In this document: piece after piece, positions 1-32,429 of the stretch
Layout: each line of letters starts with the position of its first letter
How positions within the stretch are numbered: the first letter of the stretch is position 1
DNA from: a virus
Lineage: Duplodnaviria > Heunggongvirae > Uroviricota > Caudoviricetes
DNA length: 32,429 bases
Reading direction: 5' to 3' (one strand)
Virus record (IMG/VR): IMGVR_UViG_2531839528_000015
The notes under the pieces: model-generated
What the model saw: the letters and a program-made list of their open reading frames with translations, nothing else
Databases searched by the model: none
Told to the model about the DNA's origin: nothing
Translations under genes and position numbers: made by a program

Positions 1-452
1 AACACCAGCAAACAGATAAAAAAGGGCCAGCCAATTGGCCAGCCCTTCTTAACAGGATGTCGCTTAAGCGAAATCTTAGTTAAGACGCTCCCAATAAAAC
101 CACATAAAAAACATATAATTATAATAAAAACAATTAGTTAATTTAATTTTTAATGCAGTGAATTGCAATATTCTGCAACCTCCGCCGCCACTTTGCCGCC
201 ACTTAAAGCTTTATACCACACAGACTTTAGTATACCCGAGTGAAACGCTAACACATGAGGTAGTTGGAAAATTTCCGTATATGTTGTAATATTGATACGC
301 ATTATATGATTTTTACCTGATATAATGTAATTATTAGCTTCAAAATTATTTTTGCACGAATCAGGTATTACCAAGTAGTTGTCAGTTTTTAAAAACCCAA
401 CATCCTAAAATTAGCATTGTTTTTTAACCACAAAACATCCACGGAGAAGAAC

Positions 453-1262
453 GTGTCAAAAAAGGATACAATCCAGATTATCGATATCAGGATGCAGAGA
501 CCAATCATAGCAAGAATAGAAGAAGAAAATTTAAATTTGACATTGCAAATGTCAGATAAAGCCACATTATCTGGTGCGACAGTTAGTTTTTTCACCCCAA
601 ATAACGTTTCTATATTCTTATCCTCAGCAAAAAAAGAGCTCTCAAAATCCAATTCTATATATAAAAGTCTTTTTGGAAAAATACACAAAACCAAACATAA
701 AAACTTTAAAATTTCCGACAAAGACCTGCCGAGACTCTATAATTACTTTGAATCAATTCAGACGGCCATTATTTCTATGTATACTGCAATTGAGTCTTTT
801 GCAAATATATGCATACCACATGATTATGTTTATGAAAAAAACAATGCCAAGGGAATCAAAGAATCCTATAGCAAAGAGCTAATTGAGCGATATATACCAA
901 CAAGTGAAAAAATAGATAAAATCCTACCGTCTATTTTAAATTGTGATTCGCCTAAAGGTTCAAAACTATGGCAAGATTTTAAAAGCCTTGAGTCACTTAG
1001 AAATGACATAATTCACCCCAAGACAACAAAGAAAAACACAGAAACAAAAGAAGACTCATCTTTTTTATGCATTTTACTATCAGATGACTTTATAAAAAAA
1101 GTTTCCTGTGGATTTGATTTGGTATCTTATTTTTGCAAACAAGACACTACTCATAGTCTTTTCCCAATGGGTTTCGGTGAAATTGAACTTAAACCTGTCC
1201 CAATTAAAGCCGGTGACTTTGAAAAAGTTGATGATCATGATGAAATAGAATTACCATCATAA
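453..1262 (+). CDS. Hypothetical AT-rich accessory protein next to the integrase 3' end, with a possible HEPN-like Rx4H motif
   Basis: ORF-track frame 417..1262 opens with TTG. An in-frame GTG at 453 is preceded by GGAG at 443-446, so 453 is the preferred start; the first in-frame ATG is at 492. Translation is Lys/Asn/Ile-rich, unlike the backbone. Motif R-N-D-I-I-H at residues 195-200 (nt 999-1016). Confidence 0.5.
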   Translation: MSKKDTIQIIDIRMQRPIIARIEEENLNLTLQMSDKATLSGATVSFFTPNNVSIFLSSAKKELSKSNSIYKSLFGKIHKTKHKNFKISDKDLPRLYNYFESIQTAIISMYTAIESFANICIPHDYVYEKNNAKGIKESYSKELIERYIPTSEKIDKILPSILNCDSPKGSKLWQDFKSLESLRNDIIHPKTTKKNTETKEDSSFLCILLSDDFIKKVSCGFDLVSYFCKQDTTHSLFPMGFGEIELKPVPIKAGDFEKVDDHDEIELPS

Positions 1263-1378: not shown

Positions 1379-2419
1379 TTAATCTTTCCATTTAAAACCA
1401 TTACATAATGTTAAAGGATTAAATGTTACAGCCTCCTCAAGATGATCCGGGGAGAAATGTGCATACTTCATAGTTTCACGAATATTCGCATGACCGAGTA
1501 TACGTTGCAGCACAAGAATATTCCCGCCATTCATCATAAAATGAGCGCCGAAGGTATGACGCAGAACGTGTGTCTTTTGCCCTTCCGTCAGTTCGATATC
1601 CGTTAGTTTGAGCATCTTTTTAAACTCCTGATAGCAAGGCTTAAACATCTTTCCCTGCCTTTCAGATAATTCGTCATACAACCATTTTGGGATCGGAACG
1701 GTTCGATTCTTTTTCCCTTTCGTTTTGGTGAAGGTCAGTTTATGTGGCGAGAGCTGGGGACGTGTCAACCTCTCAGCCTCACCCCATCTAGCACCTGTTG
1801 CAAGACAAATCTTAACAATCATGGTGAGGTCTTCTTTTCCGTATTGCTCGCATGCCTGAAACAATTTCGGAATTTGAGACAAAGTGAGCCAAGACATTTC
1901 TTTCTCGGCTTCCTTGAAAACACGGACTCCATCAAGTGGATTTGGTAAGCTCCACTCCCCTAGCCTTTTGAGCTCATTAAATACAGCCTCAAGATATTGT
2001 TGCTCACGATTGACAGTTATCGGTTTAGCAATCCATTTTGCCGGGTCTTTATGATAGCCATTATCTATCTCCCCCCGAAGTCGGCGGTCACGGTAATGAG
2101 CCCAATCTTTAGCAGTAAGGCGGGATGCAATAGGGTCACCAAGTCCATTACACACGATTTGAAGTTTAGCTAACCGCGACTTACTGGCGACCAGTGCCTG
2201 TCCGTGTAAATTATGCCAAAGCTGGATAATCTCACTTAAGCGTCGGCGGTCTTCTTTCTTGCCGAGCCACGGCTTATCCTCACTCTCACTTTTCGTAAAT
2301 GCTTCGAATGCCTCGGCCTCACCTTTGGTATTGAATTGCCGACGTATACGCCGCCCTTCTCGACCATTTGGATAGAGCTCGCATAACCATTTGCCATTTT
2401 TTTGCTTACTTACAGTCAT
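1379..2419 (-). CDS. int: Tyrosine integrase (P2/186 family)
   Basis: 346-aa ORF with ATG start at 2417-2419. C-terminal tyrosine-recombinase motifs HVLRHTFGAHF and LGHANIRETMKYAHF. Lies at the prophage end, transcribed the same way as the repressor. Confidence 0.9.
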   Translation of the reverse strand: MTVSKQKNGKWLCELYPNGREGRRIRRQFNTKGEAEAFEAFTKSESEDKPWLGKKEDRRRLSEIIQLWHNLHGQALVASKSRLAKLQIVCNGLGDPIASRLTAKDWAHYRDRRLRGEIDNGYHKDPAKWIAKPITVNREQQYLEAVFNELKRLGEWSLPNPLDGVRVFKEAEKEMSWLTLSQIPKLFQACEQYGKEDLTMIVKICLATGARWGEAERLTRPQLSPHKLTFTKTKGKKNRTVPIPKWLYDELSERQGKMFKPCYQEFKKMLKLTDIELTEGQKTHVLRHTFGAHFMMNGGNILVLQRILGHANIRETMKYAHFSPDHLEEAVTFNPLTLCNGFKWKD

Positions 2420-2441: not shown

Positions 2442-2780
2442 TTATTCCCAAAGTGCTGTTGCAGCATCCATTACAGGATCCAAAGGAATTTTTACGCCTG
2501 CATACTCCGGGCTATCTTTCCAAACAGTATCAATATTGCTCCCCTCAAGCTTTCCAGACTTTACTCCATCAATCGCAAAACCATTTAATGGGTATCGGTC
2601 ATCTGTTGCTTTGTCGTACACAAAGGCATATTTACCGTTGACACAAGACACCGTAGCTTTTTCAAAAGTTAACGGCCAATCCTCACCAAACTTAGCGCCA
2701 TCTAAATCCTGTGTTTTTTCAGCGGCTGAGGCTCCAAAAGAAAGGGTAAGAAGCAGAGCTAAAAAGAGTTTACATTTCAT
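2442..2780 (-). CDS. Small secreted or periplasmic protein (moron), possibly DUF2511/YebY-like
   Basis: The track ORF 2442..2852 overlaps the repressor gene. The internal Met at 2778-2780 begins a typical signal peptide MKCKLFLALLLTLSFGASAA, and a mature domain of about 90 aa follows. The YebY resemblance is from memory only. Confidence 0.55.
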   Translation of the reverse strand: MKCKLFLALLLTLSFGASAAEKTQDLDGAKFGEDWPLTFEKATVSCVNGKYAFVYDKATDDRYPLNGFAIDGVKSGKLEGSNIDTVWKDSPEYAGVKIPLDPVMDAATALWE

Positions 2781-2788
2781 AATGTCCC

Positions 2789-3649
2789 TTACACGTGTTT
2801 TTCCAATGTGAAAACTACAGCCCCGGCAGGAGTAATGTCTGTAATGTTGCATTCAAACTCAGCAGACTTATTTGACAACCTGACTTTTCCACCGGGCAAG
2901 CGAATTACATCAAAAACATCAAGAGCGCCGTCGATATCAATTAACCAGCGACCATTACTTATATTCGAAGCAGAACAGTCGACAAGCCAAGAGGCAGCTA
3001 CACCGTCAACAAAAATCAATTCCCCTGAGTTAGAAGGAATCATTGAGGGGTCAGGATGCCACGTTCCTGCATCCTTAAGCTCACCAGATTCAAGACGAGA
3101 TTTTTTAATAGAAAAACCAGATGTGACATCTTCCCTGTTAGCTCGCATTTGCCCCTTGCCTGTTGCTAACCATTCCAGTGACGTATCGGTATCAAGAGCG
3201 CATGTAACAACAACATCACCAGGGAAAAAATCTCGCCTTACCCATGTGCTAATTGTGCCAGAGGAAATGCCGAGCAAATCACCGAGCTCCTTTTGCATGG
3301 TAAAGCCATACGCATCAAGAATCCTACGCAAAACGGTTTTACCACCATTCGTCATAATCTCGTCATAAAGCTCTTTGCCTTTTAACTTGCAACTGGCTCG
3401 CTCGTGATTTGCATTTGCAAGTTCTCCATTTACAAGCCAATTGATATCAGCTCCCGTGTCAAGACAACACCTAACTATGACATTGCCAGGTATTGCATCA
3501 CGCTGAACCCAGCCGCTAACGCTGTGTTTAGCGATACCTAGCAGGTCAGCCAAATCCTTTTGCATCTTGACCCCATAGGCTGACATTAAGCGTTCCAATA
3601 CGCCGTTCGTTGCACTAACACGCCACTGAACATCAAGCTCAGAACTCAT
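2789..3649 (-). CDS. cI: Phage 186-type CI repressor with tandemly duplicated N-terminal HTH domain
   Basis: 286 aa. Two internally repeated segments align: GVLERLMSAYGVKMQKDLADLLGIAKHSVSGWVQRDAIPGNVIVRCCLDTGADINWLVNGE and TVLRRILDAYGFTMQKELGDLLGISSGTISTWVRRDFFPGDVVVTCALDTDTSLEWLATGK. They are followed by a CI C-terminal-like domain. No S24 peptidase Ser/Lys motifs recognised. Divergent from the apl-like gene. Confidence 0.8.
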   Translation of the reverse strand: MSSELDVQWRVSATNGVLERLMSAYGVKMQKDLADLLGIAKHSVSGWVQRDAIPGNVIVRCCLDTGADINWLVNGELANANHERASCKLKGKELYDEIMTNGGKTVLRRILDAYGFTMQKELGDLLGISSGTISTWVRRDFFPGDVVVTCALDTDTSLEWLATGKGQMRANREDVTSGFSIKKSRLESGELKDAGTWHPDPSMIPSNSGELIFVDGVAASWLVDCSASNISNGRWLIDIDGALDVFDVIRLPGGKVRLSNKSAEFECNITDITPAGAVVFTLEKHV

Positions 3650-3678
3650 AAAAACCCCTACAGATAATTTTATGGGTG

Positions 3679-3707
3679 TTTACAGAAAACTTTTTACGAT
3701 CTATAGT
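3679..3707 (+). promoter_or_regulatory. Candidate lytic promoter (pR-like) in the cI/apl switch region
   Basis: -35 TTTACA (3679-3684), 17-bp spacer, -10 TATAGT (3702-3707). AGGAG at 3756-3760 sits 10 nt before the ATG at 3771. Confidence 0.4.
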
Positions 3708-3770
3708 GGCATTCATCGACCAAGATGCACACCACTGCACTACATTTCAAACAACAGGAGATAATGCGAT

Positions 3771-4142
3771 ATGTCAGATGCAAAATCAATCTCGACGCAC
3801 GACTCGCAAAACTCACAAAATCAAACTGTGCTGCTAGATCCAACACAGTTTGATGCCATCGTTACCGCCATGCTGCCAGCTCTACAGACAATGATTCGCT
3901 CCGCTATGTCAGACACGATGACTGTGAAAGACTTCGCCGCTACTCGCGGTGTTAGCGAGCGTCTGGTCTGGCAATGGCTCGATGAGGGAGTCCTTCTCAA
4001 AGCTCCGACCAAAGACTTTTCCAACAAAGAAGAAGCTGCTAAACGAAGCCGAACCCTCGTAAACGTAAAAGCATGGCGCGATAAGCTGACTCAACAAGCG
4101 ATTGATTGTCGCTACATCGACCAGCGCACCGCTCTTAACTGA
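3771..4142 (+). CDS. Apl/Cox-like excisionase and switch regulator (HTH)
   Basis: First gene divergent from the repressor. Translation contains MTVKDFAATRGVSERLVWQWLDEGVLL, an HTH typical of phage Cox/Apl/AlpA-like proteins. The Ser/Gln-rich N-terminal extension makes the true start uncertain. Confidence 0.6.
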   Translation: MSDAKSISTHDSQNSQNQTVLLDPTQFDAIVTAMLPALQTMIRSAMSDTMTVKDFAATRGVSERLVWQWLDEGVLLKAPTKDFSNKEEAAKRSRTLVNVKAWRDKLTQQAIDCRYIDQRTALN

Positions 4143-4174
4143 ATTTGATTATGCAAGTTAGAGGGAATTTAACC

Positions 4175-4684
4175 ATGTTTGATTTTCAGGTTTCCAAACA
4201 TCCCCACTATGACGAAGCATGCCGCATTTTCGCACAGCGTCACAATATGGCGAAGCTGGCCGAGCGTGCAGGTATGAACGTTCAAACGTTACGTAACAAG
4301 CTCAACCCGGAACAGCCTCACCAGTTCACGCCGTCTGAATTGTGGCTGCTGACTGACCTGACCGAAGACTCAACCCTCATTGATGGTTTTTTAGCGCAGA
4401 TTCACTGCCTACCATGCGTGCCGGTTAATGAGTTGGCTAAAGACAAATTGCAGTCTTATGTCATGCGCGCAATGCGTGAACTCGGCGAACTGGCGAGCGG
4501 CGCGGTATCTGATGAACGTCTGACCATTGCCCGTAAGCACAACATGATTGAAAGCGTTAACTCCGGCATTCGCATGTTGTCATTGTCGGCTCTGGCTCTG
4601 CATGCACGTCTGCAGACTAATCCAGCTATGTCGAGCGTGGTCGATACCATGAGCGGTATTGGCGCATCGTTTGGTCTGATTTGA
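4175..4684 (+). CDS. cII: CII-like lysogeny establishment regulator (186 CII family)
   Basis: Start moved to the ATG at 4175-4177, preceded by GAGGGA at 4161-4166. Product begins MFDFQVSKHPHYDEACRIFAQRHNMAKLAERAGMNVQTLRNKL, resembling 186 CII as I recall it. Position after apl matches. Confidence 0.75.
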   Translation: MFDFQVSKHPHYDEACRIFAQRHNMAKLAERAGMNVQTLRNKLNPEQPHQFTPSELWLLTDLTEDSTLIDGFLAQIHCLPCVPVNELAKDKLQSYVMRAMRELGELASGAVSDERLTIARKHNMIESVNSGIRMLSLSALALHARLQTNPAMSSVVDTMSGIGASFGLI

Positions 4685-5711: not shown

Positions 5712-7934
5712 TTGGCTGTTCAATTCGCTTATCCGTGGAACGTCCCACGGTCGGCAATCTCCAGCCCATACCTTACTTATGAGCAACAGCATCGCCGCGA
5801 CCGTATGTTCGCGGCTTTGCTGCATGCAAAAAAGGTGCTTTCTCTCCAGCCCGACTGCGTGCGGTTAGATGTTTATCGCACTGCTGCGGTGCTGGAACAA
5901 AATCAGGGTAGTCAACGAGCCAATGCATTTTTAATCAGCTTCTGCAAAAAGGCATTGCCGCGTCTTGAACTGGTCGCAAAAAAATACGAATGCGCTGGTA
6001 TCAACAGCAAGGTATCAACCGCTGTTTTTGGAAGTCATTTTGATACTCAGCAAATGCAATATCTGTCGTCACGCATGGTTAATATGGTCGCCCGATATAA
6101 CCGTCTCCCGGACATGTCGCGCGCTGATGTTGACCTGTTGGCCGCTGATATTGCTAATTTCATTCGTGGTGAACTTGCCAACATTAATGACCACGGATTC
6201 GGCGAGCTTAAAACGCTGTACACCTGGTATATTCGTGCTGGCTTTATTTCCCTCCAATTCAACGTTATCCCACCACATTGGGAGCGGGTTGAAAAAAAAT
6301 ATGTCGGTGCGGATGAAATCGCACCGGCTATCGCCAAAATGTTTAACGATGGGTGGTGGCGCGGTCGTTTGCGCCGTGTAGCAGCTACGTGGCGCGAACA
6401 CCTGCAAATTGCAGTCGGCAACGTCAGTAAGAAAAAAAACACTTACGCGAGTAAAAACTGCGTGACTGACTGGCGTGAACAAAAGCGCCGCACTCGTGAA
6501 TTTCTCAAAGGTCTGGATCTCGAAGACGAAGACGGCAACCGTATCAGCCTAATTGAAAAATATGATGGCTCAGTTGCTAACCCTGCGATTCGCCGCTGTG
6601 AGCTCATGACCCGCATTCGTGGGTTTGAAAACATCTGTAATGAGCTCGGTTATGTCGGTGAGTTTTACACTCTAACCGCGCCGTCAAAATATCACGCCAC
6701 GACTAAAGCCGGTTACCGTAACAGCAAATGGAGCGGTGCCAGCCCGGCTGACACGCAAAACTATCTAACCGGTATCTGGGCGCGTATCCGTGCCAAACTA
6801 CATCGGGAAGATGTCCGTATTTTCGGTATTCGTGTCGCCGAGCCCCATCACGACGGCACTCCACACTGGCACATGCTGATGTTCATGCTGCCGGAAGATG
6901 TTGAATATGTTCGCTCCATCGTCCGTAAATACGCATGGAAAGAAGACCGCCACGAACTGAAAAGCGATAAATCCCAAAAAGCACGTTTCCACGCGGAGTC
7001 CATTGACCCGGAGAAAGGCAGCGCAACCGGCTATGTTGCTAAATACATTTCAAAAAATATCGACGGTTATGCTCTCGATGGTGAAACCGATGATGAAAGC
7101 GGTGAGCTGCTGAAAGAGACAGCCCCCGCCGTTTCAGCATGGGCTGCGCGCTGGCACATCCGTCAGTTTCAGTTTATTGGTGGTGCGCCGGTGACGGTTT
7201 ACCGTGAGTTGCGTCGCCTCGCTGATACCGAAACCGCGCACGGTCTGAGCGTTGAGTTTGCCGCCGTCCATGATGCCGCCGACGCTGGTGACTGGGCTGG
7301 TTATGTTAATGCTCAGGGTGGGCCGTTTGTCCGTCGCGATGATTTACAGGTGCGCACACTGTATGAACCGCGTACCGAGCTTAATCAGTACGGTGAGGAA
7401 ACGGTATGTATTAAGGGGGTCTACGATTCCTCCATAGGTGCAGGAAGCCCGATTTTAACCCGGCTCACTCAGTGGAAGATTGTTCCGAAGCGTGCTGTTG
7501 ATTTGGCCGTTGACCTTCAGGACGGCAAAGCCGTCCCTCGGAGTTCTGTCAATAACTGTACGGGAAGCGAAAGCGATCCACCGATACTGGATTTAACAAA
7601 ACCACTGAGTCGGCGTGAAAGACGAGAATTGACCAACCGACTCAGGAAGCAAAAGCCAGCAGCACGGCGAAAATTCATCCACGGAACGGATGAGCAAAAC
7701 GCAGCTATAGCTAAAACTATCGATGAGATACATCTGACAACCGGCATTAATATCAGCCGGGGCGAAGCCCTGCACCTGATGGCCGGTGGTAAAAGTTGTT
7801 TTGATGGTAAATGGCTACGCGGAACGGCCAAAGGAGAAATATTTTCCGCAGCACCATCGCATGAGGCTAAAGCTCGGAAAATCCTTAATCGTGTTGCGGC
7901 GATGGCTGAAGCATCAAAACCAATACATGAGTAA
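5712..7934 (+). CDS. A: Replication initiation endonuclease (P2 gpA-like, rolling circle)
   Basis: 740 aa. HWHMLMF motif and the tyrosine pair in YVAKYISKNIDGY. TTG start at 5712 with GGGGG at 5701-5705, tightly coupled to the upstream stop. Confidence 0.88.
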   Translation: MAVQFAYPWNVPRSAISSPYLTYEQQHRRDRMFAALLHAKKVLSLQPDCVRLDVYRTAAVLEQNQGSQRANAFLISFCKKALPRLELVAKKYECAGINSKVSTAVFGSHFDTQQMQYLSSRMVNMVARYNRLPDMSRADVDLLAADIANFIRGELANINDHGFGELKTLYTWYIRAGFISLQFNVIPPHWERVEKKYVGADEIAPAIAKMFNDGWWRGRLRRVAATWREHLQIAVGNVSKKKNTYASKNCVTDWREQKRRTREFLKGLDLEDEDGNRISLIEKYDGSVANPAIRRCELMTRIRGFENICNELGYVGEFYTLTAPSKYHATTKAGYRNSKWSGASPADTQNYLTGIWARIRAKLHREDVRIFGIRVAEPHHDGTPHWHMLMFMLPEDVEYVRSIVRKYAWKEDRHELKSDKSQKARFHAESIDPEKGSATGYVAKYISKNIDGYALDGETDDESGELLKETAPAVSAWAARWHIRQFQFIGGAPVTVYRELRRLADTETAHGLSVEFAAVHDAADAGDWAGYVNAQGGPFVRRDDLQVRTLYEPRTELNQYGEETVCIKGVYDSSIGAGSPILTRLTQWKIVPKRAVDLAVDLQDGKAVPRSSVNNCTGSESDPPILDLTKPLSRRERRELTNRLRKQKPAARRKFIHGTDEQNAAIAKTIDEIHLTTGINISRGEALHLMAGGKSCFDGKWLRGTAKGEIFSAAPSHEAKARKILNRVAAMAEASKPIHE

Positions 7935-8008: not shown

Positions 8009-8028
8009 TACTGTATAAATATACAGTA
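8009..8028 (+). promoter_or_regulatory. LexA (SOS) box overlapping a promoter
   Basis: tactgtataaatatacagta is a near-perfect CTGT-N8-ACAG palindrome. A -35-like TTGCCA sits at 7995-8000 and a strong GGGAGG Shine-Dalgarno at 8036-8041. Confidence 0.7.
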
Positions 8029-8047
8029 ACCCTGTGGGAGGGATTTC

Positions 8048-8230
8048 ATGGTTGGCGAACATTTCAGCCGAACGCAGCAAAAGTGGGCTTGTGTGCAATT
8101 TATTGCCGAGGTATCTCTGATTGCAAACTGCAAGCCATCAGACTTAAAGCTCGCGCTCACTCTCATTGCAGACCTAGCAAACAGCGAGAATAACGAAACC
8201 GAAGATGATAATTTTTATAAGGCTGATTAG
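8048..8230 (+). CDS. Small SOS-controlled protein, possibly the N-terminal part of a Tum-like antirepressor
   Basis: 60-aa ORF directly behind the LexA box and GGGAGG. It ends at TAG 8228-8230 and is in the same frame as the DinI-like ORF that starts one codon later. Confidence 0.45.
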   Translation: MVGEHFSRTQQKWACVQFIAEVSLIANCKPSDLKLALTLIADLANSENNETEDDNFYKAD

Positions 8231-8233
8231 ATT

Positions 8234-8467
8234 ATGAGAATCAATATCACGTTGGATAAAGAGCAAAAAATTAGTCAGGCAACATTGGATGCACTTGAGG
8301 CTGAACTGTACCGCAATCTTCAACCTATTTACCCAAAGACTGCTATCCGAATTCGCAAGGGCTCCGCTAATGGCGTTGAACTAAGCGGTTTGAAACTGGA
8401 CGAAGATAAAAAACGAGTAATGGAAATCATGCAGCAGGTATGGGAGGACGATAGCTGGCTGCATTAA
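8234..8467 (+). CDS. DinI-family protein
   Basis: MRINITLDKEQKISQATLDALEAELYRNLQPIYP...EDKKRVMEIMQQVWEDDSW follows the E. coli DinI pattern (MRIEVTI...DALAGEL...EDKQRISEILQETWE). Confidence 0.8.
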   Translation: MRINITLDKEQKISQATLDALEAELYRNLQPIYPKTAIRIRKGSANGVELSGLKLDEDKKRVMEIMQQVWEDDSWLH

Positions 8468-9764: not shown

Positions 9765-10769
9765 CTAATTTACATGTATGTAGAGTTCACCGTCGCCAGA
9801 CCAATCGGGACACTCTAAAACAAGCCCAAACTGCTTGAATATTTCATCAATGATTATTGTTATCTCCCGAAAATCACCAAAACCTGTAATGTGCTGGTCA
9901 TTAAACTTCCCATAAAGATTCTGAAAAGCAATGCCTAATTCTGATAATTGATATCTTATCTTTGAGTTGGATAGTGTAAGGGATAGCTTTGGATCGTATT
10001 CTTTAATATTGATGTTTAGAGAATGGACATAACCCATCGCATAAGCATAAGAGTTGATGATTAGCCTGATACGTTTTTTTACTTCAAGATACATGTCATT
10101 CAGAGAAATATTACCGTACTTATAACCCCAGATGAGTTTTTCAATCTCGTCAGATACTTCATTTACAACAGTGTCAAGATTCTCTAAAAATAAATCGACA
10201 GTTTCTTGAGGGGCAGACCCCGAAGACATGTAATTAGCGAGATATTCAGACCATGCACGCGTGGCTGAGATAAGAAGCGCGCTACCATACTCGTTGACTG
10301 TAAAGTTTTGGGCTAAGCATGTTAGTAAGTTTTTTTCATGTACGTGCACTAATTCATGGTGAATGCGATGGATGACTGCGAGGTATCCTTCTTCTTTCAG
10401 TTTTAAGAAGCTACCATCATTGAAAAGCTCAACAAAAAAATCAATCGATAGCACAAGGGTATATTCTTCATATAGCCCATCATTGCCAATTTTTGTTACT
10501 AACTGCCCGACGGCTGCGCCCTGTTTGCTATTGGTAAATGAACTAGGGGATTTGTGTTGGTAAGAGGATGTTACCTTTTGAAGAGCTTCACTGAAGTTAT
10601 AGGAAACAATCACGCATTTTAATTTGGAGATATCAAGATTGAGATTCTTTGTTAAAGCTCGGATAGCTTCTAGTGTGAAATTACCGATATTATTTGCTTC
10701 TTGCTCAGTAGCGAAACCTTCGAGGGTTATTTTAAAATCAGTTTCCAAAATATTAATCTCCGCGCCCAT
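9765..10769 (-). CDS. Hypothetical AT-rich 334-aa protein with an HExxH motif, between cos and Q (candidate defence or exclusion cargo)
   Basis: ATG at 10767-10769. Asn/Ile/Leu/Glu-rich translation. HRIHHELVHVHE at residues 134-145 (nt 10344-10358). No Walker A motif and no transmembrane segment seen. Confidence 0.7.
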   Translation of the reverse strand: MGAEINILETDFKITLEGFATEQEANNIGNFTLEAIRALTKNLNLDISKLKCVIVSYNFSEALQKVTSSYQHKSPSSFTNSKQGAAVGQLVTKIGNDGLYEEYTLVLSIDFFVELFNDGSFLKLKEEGYLAVIHRIHHELVHVHEKNLLTCLAQNFTVNEYGSALLISATRAWSEYLANYMSSGSAPQETVDLFLENLDTVVNEVSDEIEKLIWGYKYGNISLNDMYLEVKKRIRLIINSYAYAMGYVHSLNINIKEYDPKLSLTLSNSKIRYQLSELGIAFQNLYGKFNDQHITGFGDFREITIIIDEIFKQFGLVLECPDWSGDGELYIHVN

Positions 10770-20750: not shown

Positions 20751-21386
20751 ATGAATACATCAAATATCATTCAAGAGCTTGCCCGTGCAATACGCAACCT
20801 CATTCGCACAGGGGTGGTGACTGAGGTCGATACCGTGCAGGGGCTGTGCCGTGTACAAAGCGGCGGGATCCAGACTACATGGCTGAACTGGCTGACCACC
20901 CGAGCCGGTCGTTCGCGGACGTGGTGGGCTCCCTCGGTCGGTGAGCAGGTTCTGCTGCTGGCAATCGGTGGCGAGCTTGATACCGCTTTCGTGCTGCCGG
21001 GTATTTTCTCCGACGATAACCCCGCCCCGTCTGCCTCGGCGGATGCGTGGCATGTGGCTTTCCCTGATGGTGCGGTCATTGAGTACGAGCCCGAGGCCGG
21101 CGCGCTGACGGCCAGCGGTATCAAAACTGCCGACGTGACGGCATCGGAGTCCATCACTGCAACCGTACCGCTGGTACTGGTGAAAGCCTCGACCAGTATC
21201 ACCCTCGACACCCCGGAGGTGATTTGCACCAATAAGCTGACGACAGCGACGCTTGAGGTACAAAAAGGCGGCAAGATGAGCGGCAATATCGAACATACCG
21301 GCGGGTCACTGTCGTCTAATGGCAAGGTACTCCACACCCATAAACACCCAGGCGACAGCGGCGGGCAAACGGGGGCACCGTTATGA
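20751..21386 (+). CDS. V: Baseplate spike/assembly protein (P2 gpV-like)
   Basis: 211 aa, the size and position of P2 V. Confidence 0.9.
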   Translation: MNTSNIIQELARAIRNLIRTGVVTEVDTVQGLCRVQSGGIQTTWLNWLTTRAGRSRTWWAPSVGEQVLLLAIGGELDTAFVLPGIFSDDNPAPSASADAWHVAFPDGAVIEYEPEAGALTASGIKTADVTASESITATVPLVLVKASTSITLDTPEVICTNKLTTATLEVQKGGKMSGNIEHTGGSLSSNGKVLHTHKHPGDSGGQTGAPL

Positions 21387-23246: not shown

Positions 23247-24199
23247 CCGCAAAATATTTTGCCATTCTGACCAATCAGGGCGCGGCGCGGCTGGCGAACG
23301 CGGCGGCACTCGGTACCAAACTCAACCTGACGCAGATGGCCGTCGGTGATGCGAATGGTACGTTGCCGACCCCTGACCCGGCGCAGACGAAGCTCATTAA
23401 CCAGAAACGCATCGCGCCGCTGAACCTGCTGACCGTTGACCCGGCCAATACCAGTCAGATTATCGCGGAACAGATTATTCCCGAGAATGAAGGTGGTTTC
23501 TGGATCCGCGAGATTGGTCTCTATGACGATGATGGTATTCTGATTGCCGTGGCGAACTGTCCGGAGACCTACAAGCCACAACTGCAGGAGGGAAGCGGTC
23601 GCACGCAGACCATTCGCATGATTCTGATTGTGTCGAGCACATCGGCAATCACCCTGAAAATCGACCCGGCAGTCGTGCTGGCAACGCGCCAGTATGTCGA
23701 CGACAAGATTATCGAGGTGAAAGGATATGCTGATGACCTGATGAAAAAACATGTTGAGGCCGCCAATCCACACAAGCAGTACCCGTTAATCGCTAATGCT
23801 CTGAAAGAAATGGTTGACGCGGGACTGGCCGGCGACGTTCTTAAAAACCTTGGTTTGGGGGAATTGGCTCTGGCTGGCGCAACAACCGGCGCTATGTTGG
23901 TGAATGGGTATGTAGCAATTCCATTAATTATTTCTGGCGTTCGGAGACCACTTATTATCCAGTGGGGAGTGGGGCAGTTTGGGGGAAGTCTGGGGGATGA
24001 TGCGGGATATTTAAACAATTTCCCTTTCGCTTTTCCGTCGGCGTGCTACGTGATGGTTGCCAGCCACGTGGGGCATACACCTTCGGGTGCCGGAATACTA
24101 TCTGCTTCCGCAATCACAAAAAGCGGCTTTCGTGGTTTTTCCAGCGTAGCGACTGCCGCAAATCCTGTATCGGGCTGTTATGTTGCTATAGGAGGGTGA
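23243..24199 (+). CDS. H: Tail fibre protein (P2 gpH-like): conserved N-terminal part fused to the currently expressed variable C-terminal part
   Basis: 318 aa, begins MTAKYFAILTNQGAARLANAAALGTKLNLTQMAVGDANGTLPTP. A hix-like crossover site lies inside the ORF at 23838-23863. Confidence 0.85.
   Translation: MTAKYFAILTNQGAARLANAAALGTKLNLTQMAVGDANGTLPTPDPAQTKLINQKRIAPLNLLTVDPANTSQIIAEQIIPENEGGFWIREIGLYDDDGILIAVANCPETYKPQLQEGSGRTQTIRMILIVSSTSAITLKIDPAVVLATRQYVDDKIIEVKGYADDLMKKHVEAANPHKQYPLIANALKEMVDAGLAGDVLKNLGLGELALAGATTGAMLVNGYVAIPLIISGVRRPLIIQWGVGQFGGSLGDDAGYLNNFPFAFPSACYVMVASHVGHTPSGAGILSASAITKSGFRGFSSVATAANPVSGCYVAIGG
23838..23863. other. Candidate invertase crossover site 1 (hix/gix/cix-like) inside H
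   Basis: ttcttaaaaaccttggtttgggggaa resembles hixL (TTCTTGAAAACCAAGGTTTTTGATAA, from memory), with a central TT. Confidence 0.6.
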
Positions 24200-24200
24200 T

Positions 24201-24635
24201 GTGTTTTTTAGTCCATCTTTAAATATTTTTGTGAATCCTGCGCTTAAGGATGACTACATCAATGTAAATTCATGGCCAGATGATGCTGTTGAAGTTGATG
24301 AGCAGGTGTATATTGAGTTTTCCGGATTACCGCCGAAAGGAAAAATCCGTATCGCTGGGGAAAATGGTTTTCCTGCATGGTCTGAAATTCCACCACCAAC
24401 GCATGAGGAACAGATTGCCGCAGCCGAATTGAAAAAACAGCAATTGATTAATCAGTCCAACGAATATATGAATACCAAGCAATGGCCTGGTAAAGCGGCT
24501 ATTGGTCGTCTGAAAGGTGAGGAACTGGCGCAATATAATTTGTGGCTGGATTATCTGGACGCACTGGAACTGGTTGATACCTCCAGTGCTCCAGATATTG
24601 AATGGCCTACGCCTCCGGCAGTTCAGGCCAGATGA
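24201..24635 (+). CDS. Tail fibre assembly chaperone (Tfa, P2 gpG-like)
   Basis: GTG start with GGAGGG upstream. C-terminus ...LDYLDALELVDTSSAPDIEWPTPP matches the C-terminus of the convergent Tfa'. Confidence 0.8.
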   Translation: MFFSPSLNIFVNPALKDDYINVNSWPDDAVEVDEQVYIEFSGLPPKGKIRIAGENGFPAWSEIPPPTHEEQIAAAELKKQQLINQSNEYMNTKQWPGKAAIGRLKGEELAQYNLWLDYLDALELVDTSSAPDIEWPTPPAVQAR

Positions 24636-31263: not shown

Positions 31264-32429
31264 TAACGGGGATGGCAATTGACGCCGGTGCCAGCCTTGC
31301 ACCGGCTTTTATGCTGACGCTGAACAGTCAGGACATTACCAGCAACTTCAGCGACCGGCTGATTTCTCTTACCATGACGGACAATAGGGGCTTTGAAGCT
31401 GACCAGCTCGACATTGAGCTCGATGACACCGATGGGAAAGTCGAGTTACCCCTGCGCGGGGCAGTGCTGACGTTGTGGCTTGGCTGGCAGGGTTCGGCGC
31501 TGTTGAATAAGGGGGATTTTACGGTCGATGAGATTGAGCACCGGGGGGCTCCTGATACCCTGACCATCCGGGCGCGCAGCGCGGACTTTCGCGGCACGCT
31601 AAATTCCAGGCGTGAAGAGTCATGGCACGACACCACCATCGGCGAACTGGTCAGTACCATCGCAAAGCGCAACAAACTGACGGCCAGCATTGCGGAATCG
31701 CTGAAAAAAATCCCGGTACCGCATATCGACCAGTCGCAGGAATCCGACGCGGTATTTTTGAGTCGACTGGCTGACCGCAACGGGGCAACGGTATCGGTGA
31801 AGGCAGGGAAACTGTTGTTTCTGAAAGCCGGTAGTGCGATGACGGCCAGCGGCAAACCCGTCCCGCAAATGACGCTGACCCGCAGTGATGGTGACCGTCA
31901 TCAGTTTGCCATTGCCGACCGTGGGGCTTATACCGGCGTCACTGCTAAATGGTTGCACACCAAAGACCCGAAGCCACAAAAGCAGAAAGTAACGCTGAAA
32001 CGCAAGCCAAAAGAGAAGCACCTGCGCGCACTGGAACACCCAAAAGCAAAGCCGGTCAGCAAAAAGACAAAGATCAAAAAAGAACAGGAAGCACGTGAGG
32101 GTGAGTACATGGCCGGTGAAGCCGATAACGTGCTGGCGCTGACGACGGTCTATGCCTCAAAGGCACAGGCGATGCGCGCCGCTCAGGCTAAGTGGGATAA
32201 ACTGCAGCGAGGCGTTGCGGAGTTTTCAATCACACTGGCGCTAGGGCGAGCGGATTTATTTCCTGAGACGCCTGTACGCGTGTCAGGCTTTAAGCGCGTC
32301 ATAGACGAGCAGGCATGGTTAATCAGCAAGGTGACCCACAACCTCAATAATAACGGTTTCACGACGGGCTTAGAGCTTGAGGTTAAACTCTCCGATGTGG
32401 AGTACAGCTCAGAAGAAAATGAGGAGTGA
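31260..32429 (+). CDS. D: Tail protein D (P2 gpD-like)
   Basis: 389 aa. ATG overlaps the U stop, and the stop codon is the last triplet of the window. Confidence 0.9.
   Translation: MITGMAIDAGASLAPAFMLTLNSQDITSNFSDRLISLTMTDNRGFEADQLDIELDDTDGKVELPLRGAVLTLWLGWQGSALLNKGDFTVDEIEHRGAPDTLTIRARSADFRGTLNSRREESWHDTTIGELVSTIAKRNKLTASIAESLKKIPVPHIDQSQESDAVFLSRLADRNGATVSVKAGKLLFLKAGSAMTASGKPVPQMTLTRSDGDRHQFAIADRGAYTGVTAKWLHTKDPKPQKQKVTLKRKPKEKHLRALEHPKAKPVSKKTKIKKEQEAREGEYMAGEADNVLALTTVYASKAQAMRAAQAKWDKLQRGVAEFSITLALGRADLFPETPVRVSGFKRVIDEQAWLISKVTHNLNNNGFTTGLELEVKLSDVEYSSEENEE

Follow-up and report, generated by a model that had tools for sequence, protein, structure and literature searches.

The immunity region and its repressor

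The subject of this study is cI, the immunity repressor gene in a 32,429-nucleotide stretch of tailed-virus DNA (Caudoviricetes; IMG/VR record IMGVR_UViG_2531839528_000015), the whole of which is called the window below. The window represents a prophage that resembles PSP3 and belongs to the 186 group (genus Eganvirus). Its repressor, CI, is 97.9% identical to the CI of PSP3 (NP_958086) over all 286 residues and 99.7% identical to that of phage vB_EcoM-613R3, with further close homologs in phages SEN1, Midge, SW9, SI22 and RCIP0057. The gene is the first of a leftward lysogenic operon that ends in int, and it stands opposite a rightward lytic operon containing cII, in a genome of the P2-like kind and in the same order as in PSP3 and 186. 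The window and PSP3 have in common the gene order int - DUF2511 gene - cI / orf30 - cII - fil ... A - tumA - tumB, nearly the same region around the lytic promoter pR, and CI proteins without any essential difference. The coordinates of all features are collected in Table 1.

CI carries two helix-turn-helix (HTH) domains in tandem, a duplication of which we are virtually certain. The PF07022 family (Phage_CI_repr HTH) matches the protein in two stretches (whole-protein E 1.3e-52), and in a BLASTP comparison of the first 93 residues with the rest, residues 14-93 aligned to residues ~100-183 at 45% identity (E 2e-23), a similarity far above chance. The two domains, here termed N1 and N2, are followed by a PF16452 domain (Phage_CI_C; residues 180-277, E 1e-20). 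An earlier reading of this DNA, made without database searches (the sequence-only reading), had described just such an open reading frame (ORF), with a tandem HTH and a C-terminal domain of the 186 CI type, and had put it roughly 90 residues above the 192 of 186 CI. All of this is borne out, the 186 cI coding sequence being 579 bp (192 residues) and the window protein 94 residues longer. The same reading had left it to a Pfam scan to say whether the second repeat is simply the normal linker, and it is not: it occupies the ancestral position. The solved structure of 186 CI (2fjr) aligns to residues 105-280 only, with residues 105-169 paired with the N-terminal domain of 186 CI. N2 and the C-terminal domain therefore make up a complete 186-like CI, and N1 with the linker behind it accounts for the added ~94 residues.

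A structural model agrees with this layout. The AlphaFold2 prediction, for a monomer and built on 60 homologs, folds into a pair of five-helix domains and a C-terminal one rich in beta structure (mean per-residue confidence, pLDDT, 78.5), with linkers of low confidence between them (residues 78-87 and 171-177); with a predicted TM score (pTM) of 0.41 it does not predict how the domains are placed relative to one another. On this model N1 and N2 are predicted to be intact five-helix HTH domains of the CI type. The C-terminal domain is matched by 2fkd_A in a phmmer search (E 2.4e-9), and its modelled fold superposes on 2fkd_A with a TM score of 0.88 and a root-mean-square deviation of 1.6 Å. Between the two heads, residues 78-87 (pLDDT <50) are predicted to be disordered and a helix is predicted at 92-114; by the conservation of alignment columns, residues 89-104 form a nearly invariant helix that runs into N2. 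The first 13-17 residues, ahead of N1, are highly variable.

The protein is already annotated, as 'CI' or 'transcriptional repressor', and the database records are silent on the duplicated domain. A passage in Nilsson et al. 2011 (PMC3448106), the sole paper we found to comment on the length of PSP3-type CI, gives PsP3 CI 'a longer C-terminal domain' than 186 CI, a misreading, as the domain scan makes plain. No description of the duplicated HTH of PSP3-type CI was found in the literature searched, a search whose coverage did not extend to subscription journals. Any domain scan would reveal the tandem HTH, and the system is not of a new kind. The part that seems not to have been described before is how unequally the two heads have evolved, with two sets of operators to match.

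Opposite evolution of the two DNA-binding domains

The two heads have evolved in opposite ways. As mean pairwise values over the alignment of 60 homologs, identity is 63% in N1 and 55% in its recognition helix, which falls into discrete types, as against 89% in N2 and 91% in the recognition helix of that domain; the C-terminal domain stands at 65%. The two helices of the window CI also differ from one another (IAKHSVSGWVQR in N1 and ISSGTISTWVRR in N2, with the cores AKHSVSGW and SSGTISTW). The N1 helix types include AKHSVSGW (window and PSP3), YANNISSW, PSNSVSTW (Midge) and HANNVSSW (SW9), and in a wider set that takes in distant tandem CIs the N2 helix stays constant at IS[ST]GT[IV]STW[VI]R next to at least 10 types of N1 helix.

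Comparison at the codon level indicates what lies behind this pattern. In N2, between immunity types, the proportion of synonymous differences (pS) is 0.60-0.86, which is saturated, and that of nonsynonymous differences (pN) is 0.02-0.065; since synonymous sites are saturated, the conservation of N2 reflects selection and not recent exchange. In N1 the pN/pS ratio is 0.019 within a type (the window against locus L024, pS 0.77) and 0.23-0.47 between types. Strong purifying selection acts on each of the two domains. Duplicated domains often decay, and the residues before N1 are very variable, as they might be if one HTH copy were a neutral or decaying relic and the protein in effect an ordinary 186-type CI. 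We find this hardly credible in view of the low pN/pS at saturated pS in both domains and of an architecture that recurs in hundreds of proteins across Enterobacteriaceae, with at least three independent origins.

A palindrome associated with N2

A candidate operator for N2 comes from relatives that have only one head. Thirty-one loci (L086-L116) encode a single-HTH CI, of the P0133 type, whose N-terminal domain matches N2 at 79-84% identity, and in every one of them the recognition helix, LSSGTISTWVRR, is the same as that of N2. Each of the 31 also has a promoter beside cI, of the form TTGAC[AG] - 17 bp - TA[GA]ATT, the spacer of which is a palindrome, ACT[TC]GCAAATGCAAG[TC]T or one of the variants ACTTGCAAAATCAAGTT, ACTTGCATAATCAAGTT and ACTTGCAAATACAAGTT, that fills the gap between the -35 and -10 elements. 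The -35/-10 spacer beside cI is the classic position for the operator of an immunity repressor. Because N2 has its recognition helix in common with these relatives, in which the promoter operator is the palindrome, we take N2 to be the probable reader of the palindrome, the 16-bp form of which is ACTTGCAAATGCAAGT. The single-HTH proteins and the window CI have the family of the C-terminal domain and the operator motif in common; the former lack N1, and their palindrome sits in the pR spacer and not at distal sites.

In one of these loci, L086, the early region is much simpler than in the window: the operon facing cI comprises a small ORF, a gene for a DksA-like zinc-finger protein and one for a gpA-like replicase, and has no Apl-like or cII gene. 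The 31 loci are viral contigs mostly of ~13-17 kb, several of them up to ~50 kb, which often end right after cI; satellites or compact elements related to P2 are one possibility, prophages with boundaries called too short another. P0135, another N2-like protein with one HTH, had no close relative in the viral contig collection; the scan returned more tandem CIs instead, and these showed that a constant N2 helix beside varied N1 helices is general.

In the whole PSP3 genome, ACTTGCAAATGCAAGT occurs with at most two mismatches at exactly three sites (0.02 in shuffled sequences), none of them at pR. The three sites mirror the layout of pB, FL and FR in 186, where FR lies at the apl/cII junction. 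In the window, the FL-like site inside cI is the only one with three or fewer mismatches (0.16 in shuffled sequences). It coincides with the strongest peak of third-codon-position conservation in cI, at codons 76-81 (DNA CTTGCAAATGCAAA), which was found independently of ACTTGCAAATGCAAGT. The motif is retained there in most immunity types and also in distant tandem CIs, and in Midge-like phages it is inverted, as TTTGCATTTGCAAG encoding SLHLQD in place of CTTGCAAATGCAAAT encoding ELANAN; an inverted motif over a different peptide means that the DNA is conserved here and not the protein.

The FR-like site recurs at the equivalent position in most tandem-CI loci, and the sequences ACTTGCAAAATCAAGT and ACTTGCATAATCAAGT both occur as pR spacers in single-HTH relatives. 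At the level of sequence, then, candidate distal operators flank the switch, with FL-like and FR-like copies in the window and all three positions in PSP3. A possible further site of the N2 type, a weak one, at the start of orf30 has a four-mismatch counterpart at the equivalent place in L067, L070 and L085.

The pR segment and candidate operators for N1

The DNA next to cI behaves in step with N1. Over 83 loci, in global comparison, the ~50 bp from the cI start to the predicted -10 element of pR are 0.87 identical within N1 types and 0.60 between them, each type having a quite different sequence there, and the leader to the right of the -10 element is 0.93 identical within types and 0.88 between. 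N1 is taken to be the immunity head because it varies together with this adjacent DNA. Each N1 type has its own repeats or palindromes at pR, in most cases with a spacing of 21-22 bp, though of 18 bp in the SW9 type. The window has the direct repeat TACAGAtAAtTTT twice, 22 bp apart, one copy overlapping the predicted -35 element and the other just upstream of it; the Midge type has 15-bp direct repeats spaced by 21 bp, with TCGA at the core; one other type has two 16-17-bp palindromes, CCAAAATTAATTTTTG and GCAAAATTAAATTTCGC, 21 bp apart; and further types have elements such as AACAAGAATTTTGTT or a 22-bp palindrome over the -35. Palindromes like those of 186 were sought in 3650-3710, where only direct repeats and quasi-palindromes rich in A and T turned up, and no further copies of the pR repeats beyond chance were found in the window.

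The sequence-only reading had proposed that a covalently linked pair of DNA-binding domains would change operator spacing and cooperativity. The linkage itself stands. Altered spacing or cooperativity is not favoured for this lineage, the pR repeats being ~21-22 bp apart, about two helical turns, as are the three pR operators of 186. Nor does the idea that the linked heads sit together on one operator fit what was found: the recognition helices have diverged, N1 varies with pR while N2 is nearly invariant, and the candidate N2 operator is distal.

In its sharpest form that idea makes CI a single-chain pseudo-dimer, N1 and N2 of one chain occupying adjacent half-sites of composite, non-palindromic operators. 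There are precedents for two HTH-type modules in one chain, joined by a flexible linker and with separate specificities possible, in the eukaryotic POU domain and in engineered single-chain 434 repressors, whose modules bind adjacent half-sites of one composite site. The direct rather than inverted repeats at pR in the window (TACAGAtAAtTTT twice, 22 bp apart) and in the Midge type (15 bp, 21 bp apart) would suit such an arrangement, as would the long N1-N2 linker, predicted to be partly disordered. We nonetheless consider it quite unlikely, since N2 is nearly invariant while the pR segment changes with N1 and no half-site common to all types was seen there; since the N2-type palindrome is complete by itself in single-HTH relatives and occurs in PSP3 only at pB, FL and FR; and since several N1 types have self-sufficient palindromes at pR, CCAAAATTAATTTTTG and GCAAAATTAAATTTCGC among them. 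The two heads of a single-chain pseudo-dimer would also have matching specificities, and here the helices differ (AKHSVSGW against SSGTISTW). Unlike the POU domain and the single-chain 434 repressors, PSP3-type CI has a 186-type oligomerisation domain, and the evidence points to separate operators at separate positions.

Two other elements of this region were considered and set aside. The word GATGCAAAA is present five times in 3291-3785, which made it a candidate for a dispersed operator word, but the whole window holds 17 copies with 14.5 expected by chance, and two of the five merely encode the conserved Met-Gln-Lys of both HTH domains. The leader from the -10 element of pR to the start of orf30 (3710-3770) is almost identical across immunity types despite saturated synonymous sites in cI. 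It contains TGCAC-N5-TGCAC (3726-3740), the arms of which are constant and the centre of which varies among distant loci. This element was rejected as an N2 site for its poor match to the N2 half-site; it could be a site of the Apl/Cox type, part of pL, or a weak CI site.

A proposed division of labour between N1 and N2

On sequence evidence we think it probable, with moderate confidence, that the two heads divide the work of the repressor, N1 acting at pR and N2 at the distal and late-control operators. An old tandem duplication would have placed two different reading heads on one oligomerisation domain of the 186 type, and the two jobs done by the single HTH of 186 CI would here be split between two domains. 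N1 would be the exchangeable immunity head: pairs of N1 domains from a CI dimer would bind the type-specific repeats in 3658-3706 and shut off the lytic operon. N2 would be the fixed head, binding the ACTTGCAAATGCAAGT palindrome at the FL-like, FR-like and pB sites, and through these sites would control the late activator and, by analogy with 186, support long-range looping that tunes pR and pL. The coding region of N1 and the pR operators are adjacent, and together would form a compact cassette of ~290 bp; such a cassette could diversify or be exchanged to give new immunities while the N2 operator network is left untouched. Induction would proceed through the LexA-controlled TumA antirepressor.

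Downstream of A lies an SOS induction module (8011..8467) in which a LexA box is followed by tumA and tumB, two genes that are annotated as such in PSP3. In PMC3121763 a personal communication is cited for antirepressor activity in the upstream PSP3 gene. The gene content suggests that CI is inactivated by a LexA-controlled antirepressor of the Tum type and not by RecA-stimulated self-cleavage. TumA has no Pfam family; it is 98-100% identical in 10 of 10 phage records with a PSP3-family CI, whatever the N1 type, and had no match in other phage records. Being constant across N1 types, it should dock on a conserved part of CI, and its target could be N2, the helix at 89-104 or the C-terminal domain.

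This constancy bears on another account of CI, in which N1 is the sole DNA-binding head, N2 is a structural or docking module for TumA or for assembly of the wheel, and ACTTGCAAATGCAAGT is bound by a different factor or in a manner independent of N1. A TumA that is invariant across N1 types and confined to phages with PSP3-family CI needs a conserved target, and N2 together with the helix at 89-104 is conserved along its whole length, not merely in the recognition helix. But the recognition helix of N2 is the same as in single-HTH relatives, whose only HTH must bind DNA; the motif sites of PSP3 copy the positions of pB, FL and FR, which CI binds in 186; and N2 retains all the Pfam features of an HTH. 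We therefore judge it unlikely that N2 has left DNA binding altogether, while a docking role is compatible with N2 doing both jobs.

Several points weigh against the division of labour that we favour. The assignments of N1 to pR and of N2 to FL, FR and pB both rest on co-variation and co-conservation, and the position of a motif is conserved among homologous loci partly by inheritance, so that its recurrence is not independent evidence. The repeats at pR in the window, which are of type A, are direct, AT-rich and without a clean palindrome, so that half-sites are not definable and the repeats are candidates only. The FR-like site of the window has four mismatches to the ACTTGCAAATGCAAGT consensus, and the pB position falls just beyond the window, as gene D ends at 32429. 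Docking of TumA is a second possible cause of the conservation of N2, and if TumA did dock on N2, the release of a pR held by N1 would be unaccounted for. Finally, if a 14-mer wheel of the 186 kind formed, it would hold 28 heads, among which the DNA would have to be routed.

The wider proposal joins these elements: a two-headed CI that splits the two specificities of 186 CI, with a fast-evolving N1 cassette that sets immunity and a frozen N2, perhaps also the dock for TumA, that keeps the ancestral operator network (pB, FL, FR), and with independent duplications in at least three lineages that suggest a general route for 186-type phages to gain new immunities while late-gene control and looping stay as they are. 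We regard it as about as likely to be right as wrong.

Comparison with phage 186 and significance

The CI of 186 is built as a wheel from seven dimers and has operators at pR, FL, FR and pB. In the annotated 186 record the sites at pB, FL and FR share ATTCAC-N5-GTGAAT and are distinct from those at pR. As a model of cooperative gene control over long range, the 186 wheel is among the best studied, and the reading of two unrelated kinds of operator by one HTH has been a puzzle in it. The title of Shearwin et al. 2002, as cited in PMC1904263, states that the 186 repressor, with its single HTH, binds two distinct recognition sequences. The 186 and PSP3 types have in common the HTH family, the C-terminal fold, the genomic position of the repressor and an induction module of the LexA/Tum type. 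They differ in having one HTH (186 CI) or two with different recognition helices (PSP3-type CI), in operator sequences that are unrelated (ATTCAC-N5-GTGAAT in 186, ACTTGCAAATGCAAGT in the PSP3 type), and in the gene at the Apl position, orf30 of the PSP3 type being unrelated to 186 Apl.

If the division of labour is correct, separate heads would offer a clean genetic handle, in that each could be mutated or swapped alone. In the 186 wheel fourteen heads already occupy every inward-facing major groove of the wrapped DNA, and a PSP3-type CI raises the structural question of how DNA would be routed on a wheel with twice that number. Heteroimmune variants could arise by way of a small cassette (N1 and its pR operators), with the late-gene and looping circuitry and the target of the antirepressor kept fixed. 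For synthetic biology, this family would provide more than 10 natural pairs of head and operator on one common scaffold.

How widespread tandem heads are

A search of 5.8 billion proteins gave 731 matches to CI. Nearly all of the best 120 are 267-290 residues long, and CIs of tandem size among these 120 of 731 come from Escherichia, Salmonella, Klebsiella, Enterobacter, Citrobacter, Cronobacter, Pantoea and others. When representatives of clusters at 50% identity were searched exhaustively with HMMER, 432 clusters matched; of these 432 representatives, the best 150 include 106 with a single CI-type HTH, 27 with two (a count that takes in some fragments), one with three and a long protein with five partial matches. 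Single-HTH relatives invariably align to query residues ~100-283.

In a neighbour-joining tree of the 62-residue domains, which is crude, being a distance tree of a short domain, the PSP3 clade splits into a group of N1 domains and a group of N2 domains; this separate grouping argues for one old duplication in that clade. In P0137 (the 4LV2017 type) and in P0184, P0196 and P0199, the domains are either mutual closest relatives or scattered among different single-HTH proteins. The tree thus indicates that the duplications in these proteins are independent and that tandem CI heads arose at least three times.

Some members of the wider family depart further from the PSP3 type. P0237 (323 residues) has three full HTH domains and P0214 (525 residues) is the protein with five partial matches, so that multiplication of heads goes beyond two. 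P0137, the CI of Klebsiella phage 4LV2017 (L004), has 313 residues and an independently duplicated tandem HTH, with heads that are 64% identical and recognition helices that are nearly the same (STMANRY and STLANRY) and close to that of 186 CI (SSLSNRY). Just upstream of its cI (L004, ~2840-2920) are 186-like ATTC...GTGAA elements, ATTCTTTATGTGAA and ATTCTCCGTTTTGTGAA, ~21 bp apart. Because its recognition helices are nearly identical and its pR region is 186-like, the picture of a linked pair put forward in the sequence-only reading may apply to the 4LV2017 type.

In the window, Met99 of CI (3353-3355) aligns with the start Met of single-HTH homologs such as P0135 (MLSTGGRPVLQRV...). An internal start at this codon, giving a short isoform of N2 and the C-terminal domain, was rejected as a general feature, as many homologs have Leu or Val there.

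Neighbouring genes and other observations

Table 1. Positions of the features discussed, in window coordinates except where PSP3 is named
Feature	Position	Strand	Basis and remarks
int	1379-2419	-	ORF and Pfam
DUF2511 (YebY-like) gene	2442-2780	-	between cI and int; signal-peptide-like N-terminus
cI	2789..3649	-	286 residues and stop; immunity repressor gene in a 186-type, PSP3-like prophage (Eganvirus); ORF, homology and Pfam
CI C-terminal oligomerisation domain	2792..3112	-	residues 180-286; PF16452, 2fkd match, AlphaFold2
N2, second CI-type HTH	3155..3343	-	residues ~103-165; recognition helix 128-140 = 3230-3268; 2fjr alignment
N1-N2 linker	3344..3421	-	residues 77-102; AlphaFold2 and conservation columns
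FL-like candidate operator	3407..3422	-	ACTTGCAAATGCAAAT, one mismatch to ACTTGCAAATGCAAGT; codons 76-81, end of N1/start of linker
N1, first CI-type HTH	3422..3607	-	residues ~15-76; recognition helix 40-52 = 3494-3532; Pfam and self-alignment
Immunity-type-specific segment with candidate N1 operators	3658..3706	+	repeats and comparison of types
Candidate N1 repeat TACAGATAATTTT	3659-3671		
pR, predicted lytic promoter	3679..3707	+	TTTACA - 17 bp - TATAGT; consensus scan 10/12; position of annotated 186 pR relative to cI start
Candidate N1 repeat TACAGAAAACTTT	3681-3693		22 bp start-to-start from TACAGATAATTTT
Inverted copy ATCTATAG	3699-3706		over pR -10
orf30	3771..4142	+	first gene of lytic operon, Apl/Cox position
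Possible weak N2-type site	3775..3790	+	AGATGCAAAATCAATC, start of orf30; 12/16 against FR-type variant
FR-like candidate operator	4143..4158	-	ACTTGCATAATCAAAT, orf30/cII spacer; one mismatch to ACTTGCATAATCAAGT
cII-like activator of lysogeny establishment	4175..4684	+	PF06892 (Phage_CP76), E 3.7e-46; PSP3 annotation
gpA-like gene	5712-7934	+	ORF and Pfam
LexA box	8011-8026	+	CTGTATAAATATACAG; pattern match
tumA-like antirepressor gene	8048-8230	+	ORF; 60 residues; 98% identical to PSP3 TumA
tumB, DinI-like	8234-8467	+	DinI Pfam match, E 7e-24
PSP3 pB site	PSP3 21279-21294		scan with ACTTGCAAATGCAAGT; flanked by gene D and the late activator gene ogr/pag
PSP3 FL-like site	PSP3 23836-23851		scan with ACTTGCAAATGCAAGT; inside cI
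PSP3 FR-like site	PSP3 24572-24587		ACTTGCAAAATCAAGT, two mismatches; between orf30 and cII

A 334-residue ORF at 9765-10769 (- strand) separates the tum region from the portal gene; the small genes that PSP3 has in this place, orf37 and orf38, are different ones. No match to the ORF came from Pfam or PADLOC. It is situated close to the end of the phage genome, next to cos, and a passage in PMC9122126 describes variable cargo of P2-like phages at sites of this kind; the ORF may be a defence gene or some other accessory gene. To the left of int, and probably outside the prophage, a 281-residue ORF at 417-1262 (+ strand) had no Pfam match and only weak PADLOC matches, to models of the HEPN type (RTasHEPN, E 1.3e-4). 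A scan against NCBIfam returned nothing specific.

The DUF2511 gene sits within the lysogenic operon, from which expression in the prophage is to be expected, and PSP3, Midge and SW9 are arranged likewise. The orf30 product matched no Pfam family. In the PSP3 record it is gp30/orf30, the PSP3 protein being called a singleton in a passage of Nilsson et al. 2011 (PMC3448106), and the Midge homolog is recorded as 'transcriptional repressor Cox' on HHpred evidence. The gene contains a strong inverted repeat (3820-3854), ATCAAACTGTGCTG - 7 nt - CAACACAGTTTGAT, with 14-nt arms that are 93% complementary.

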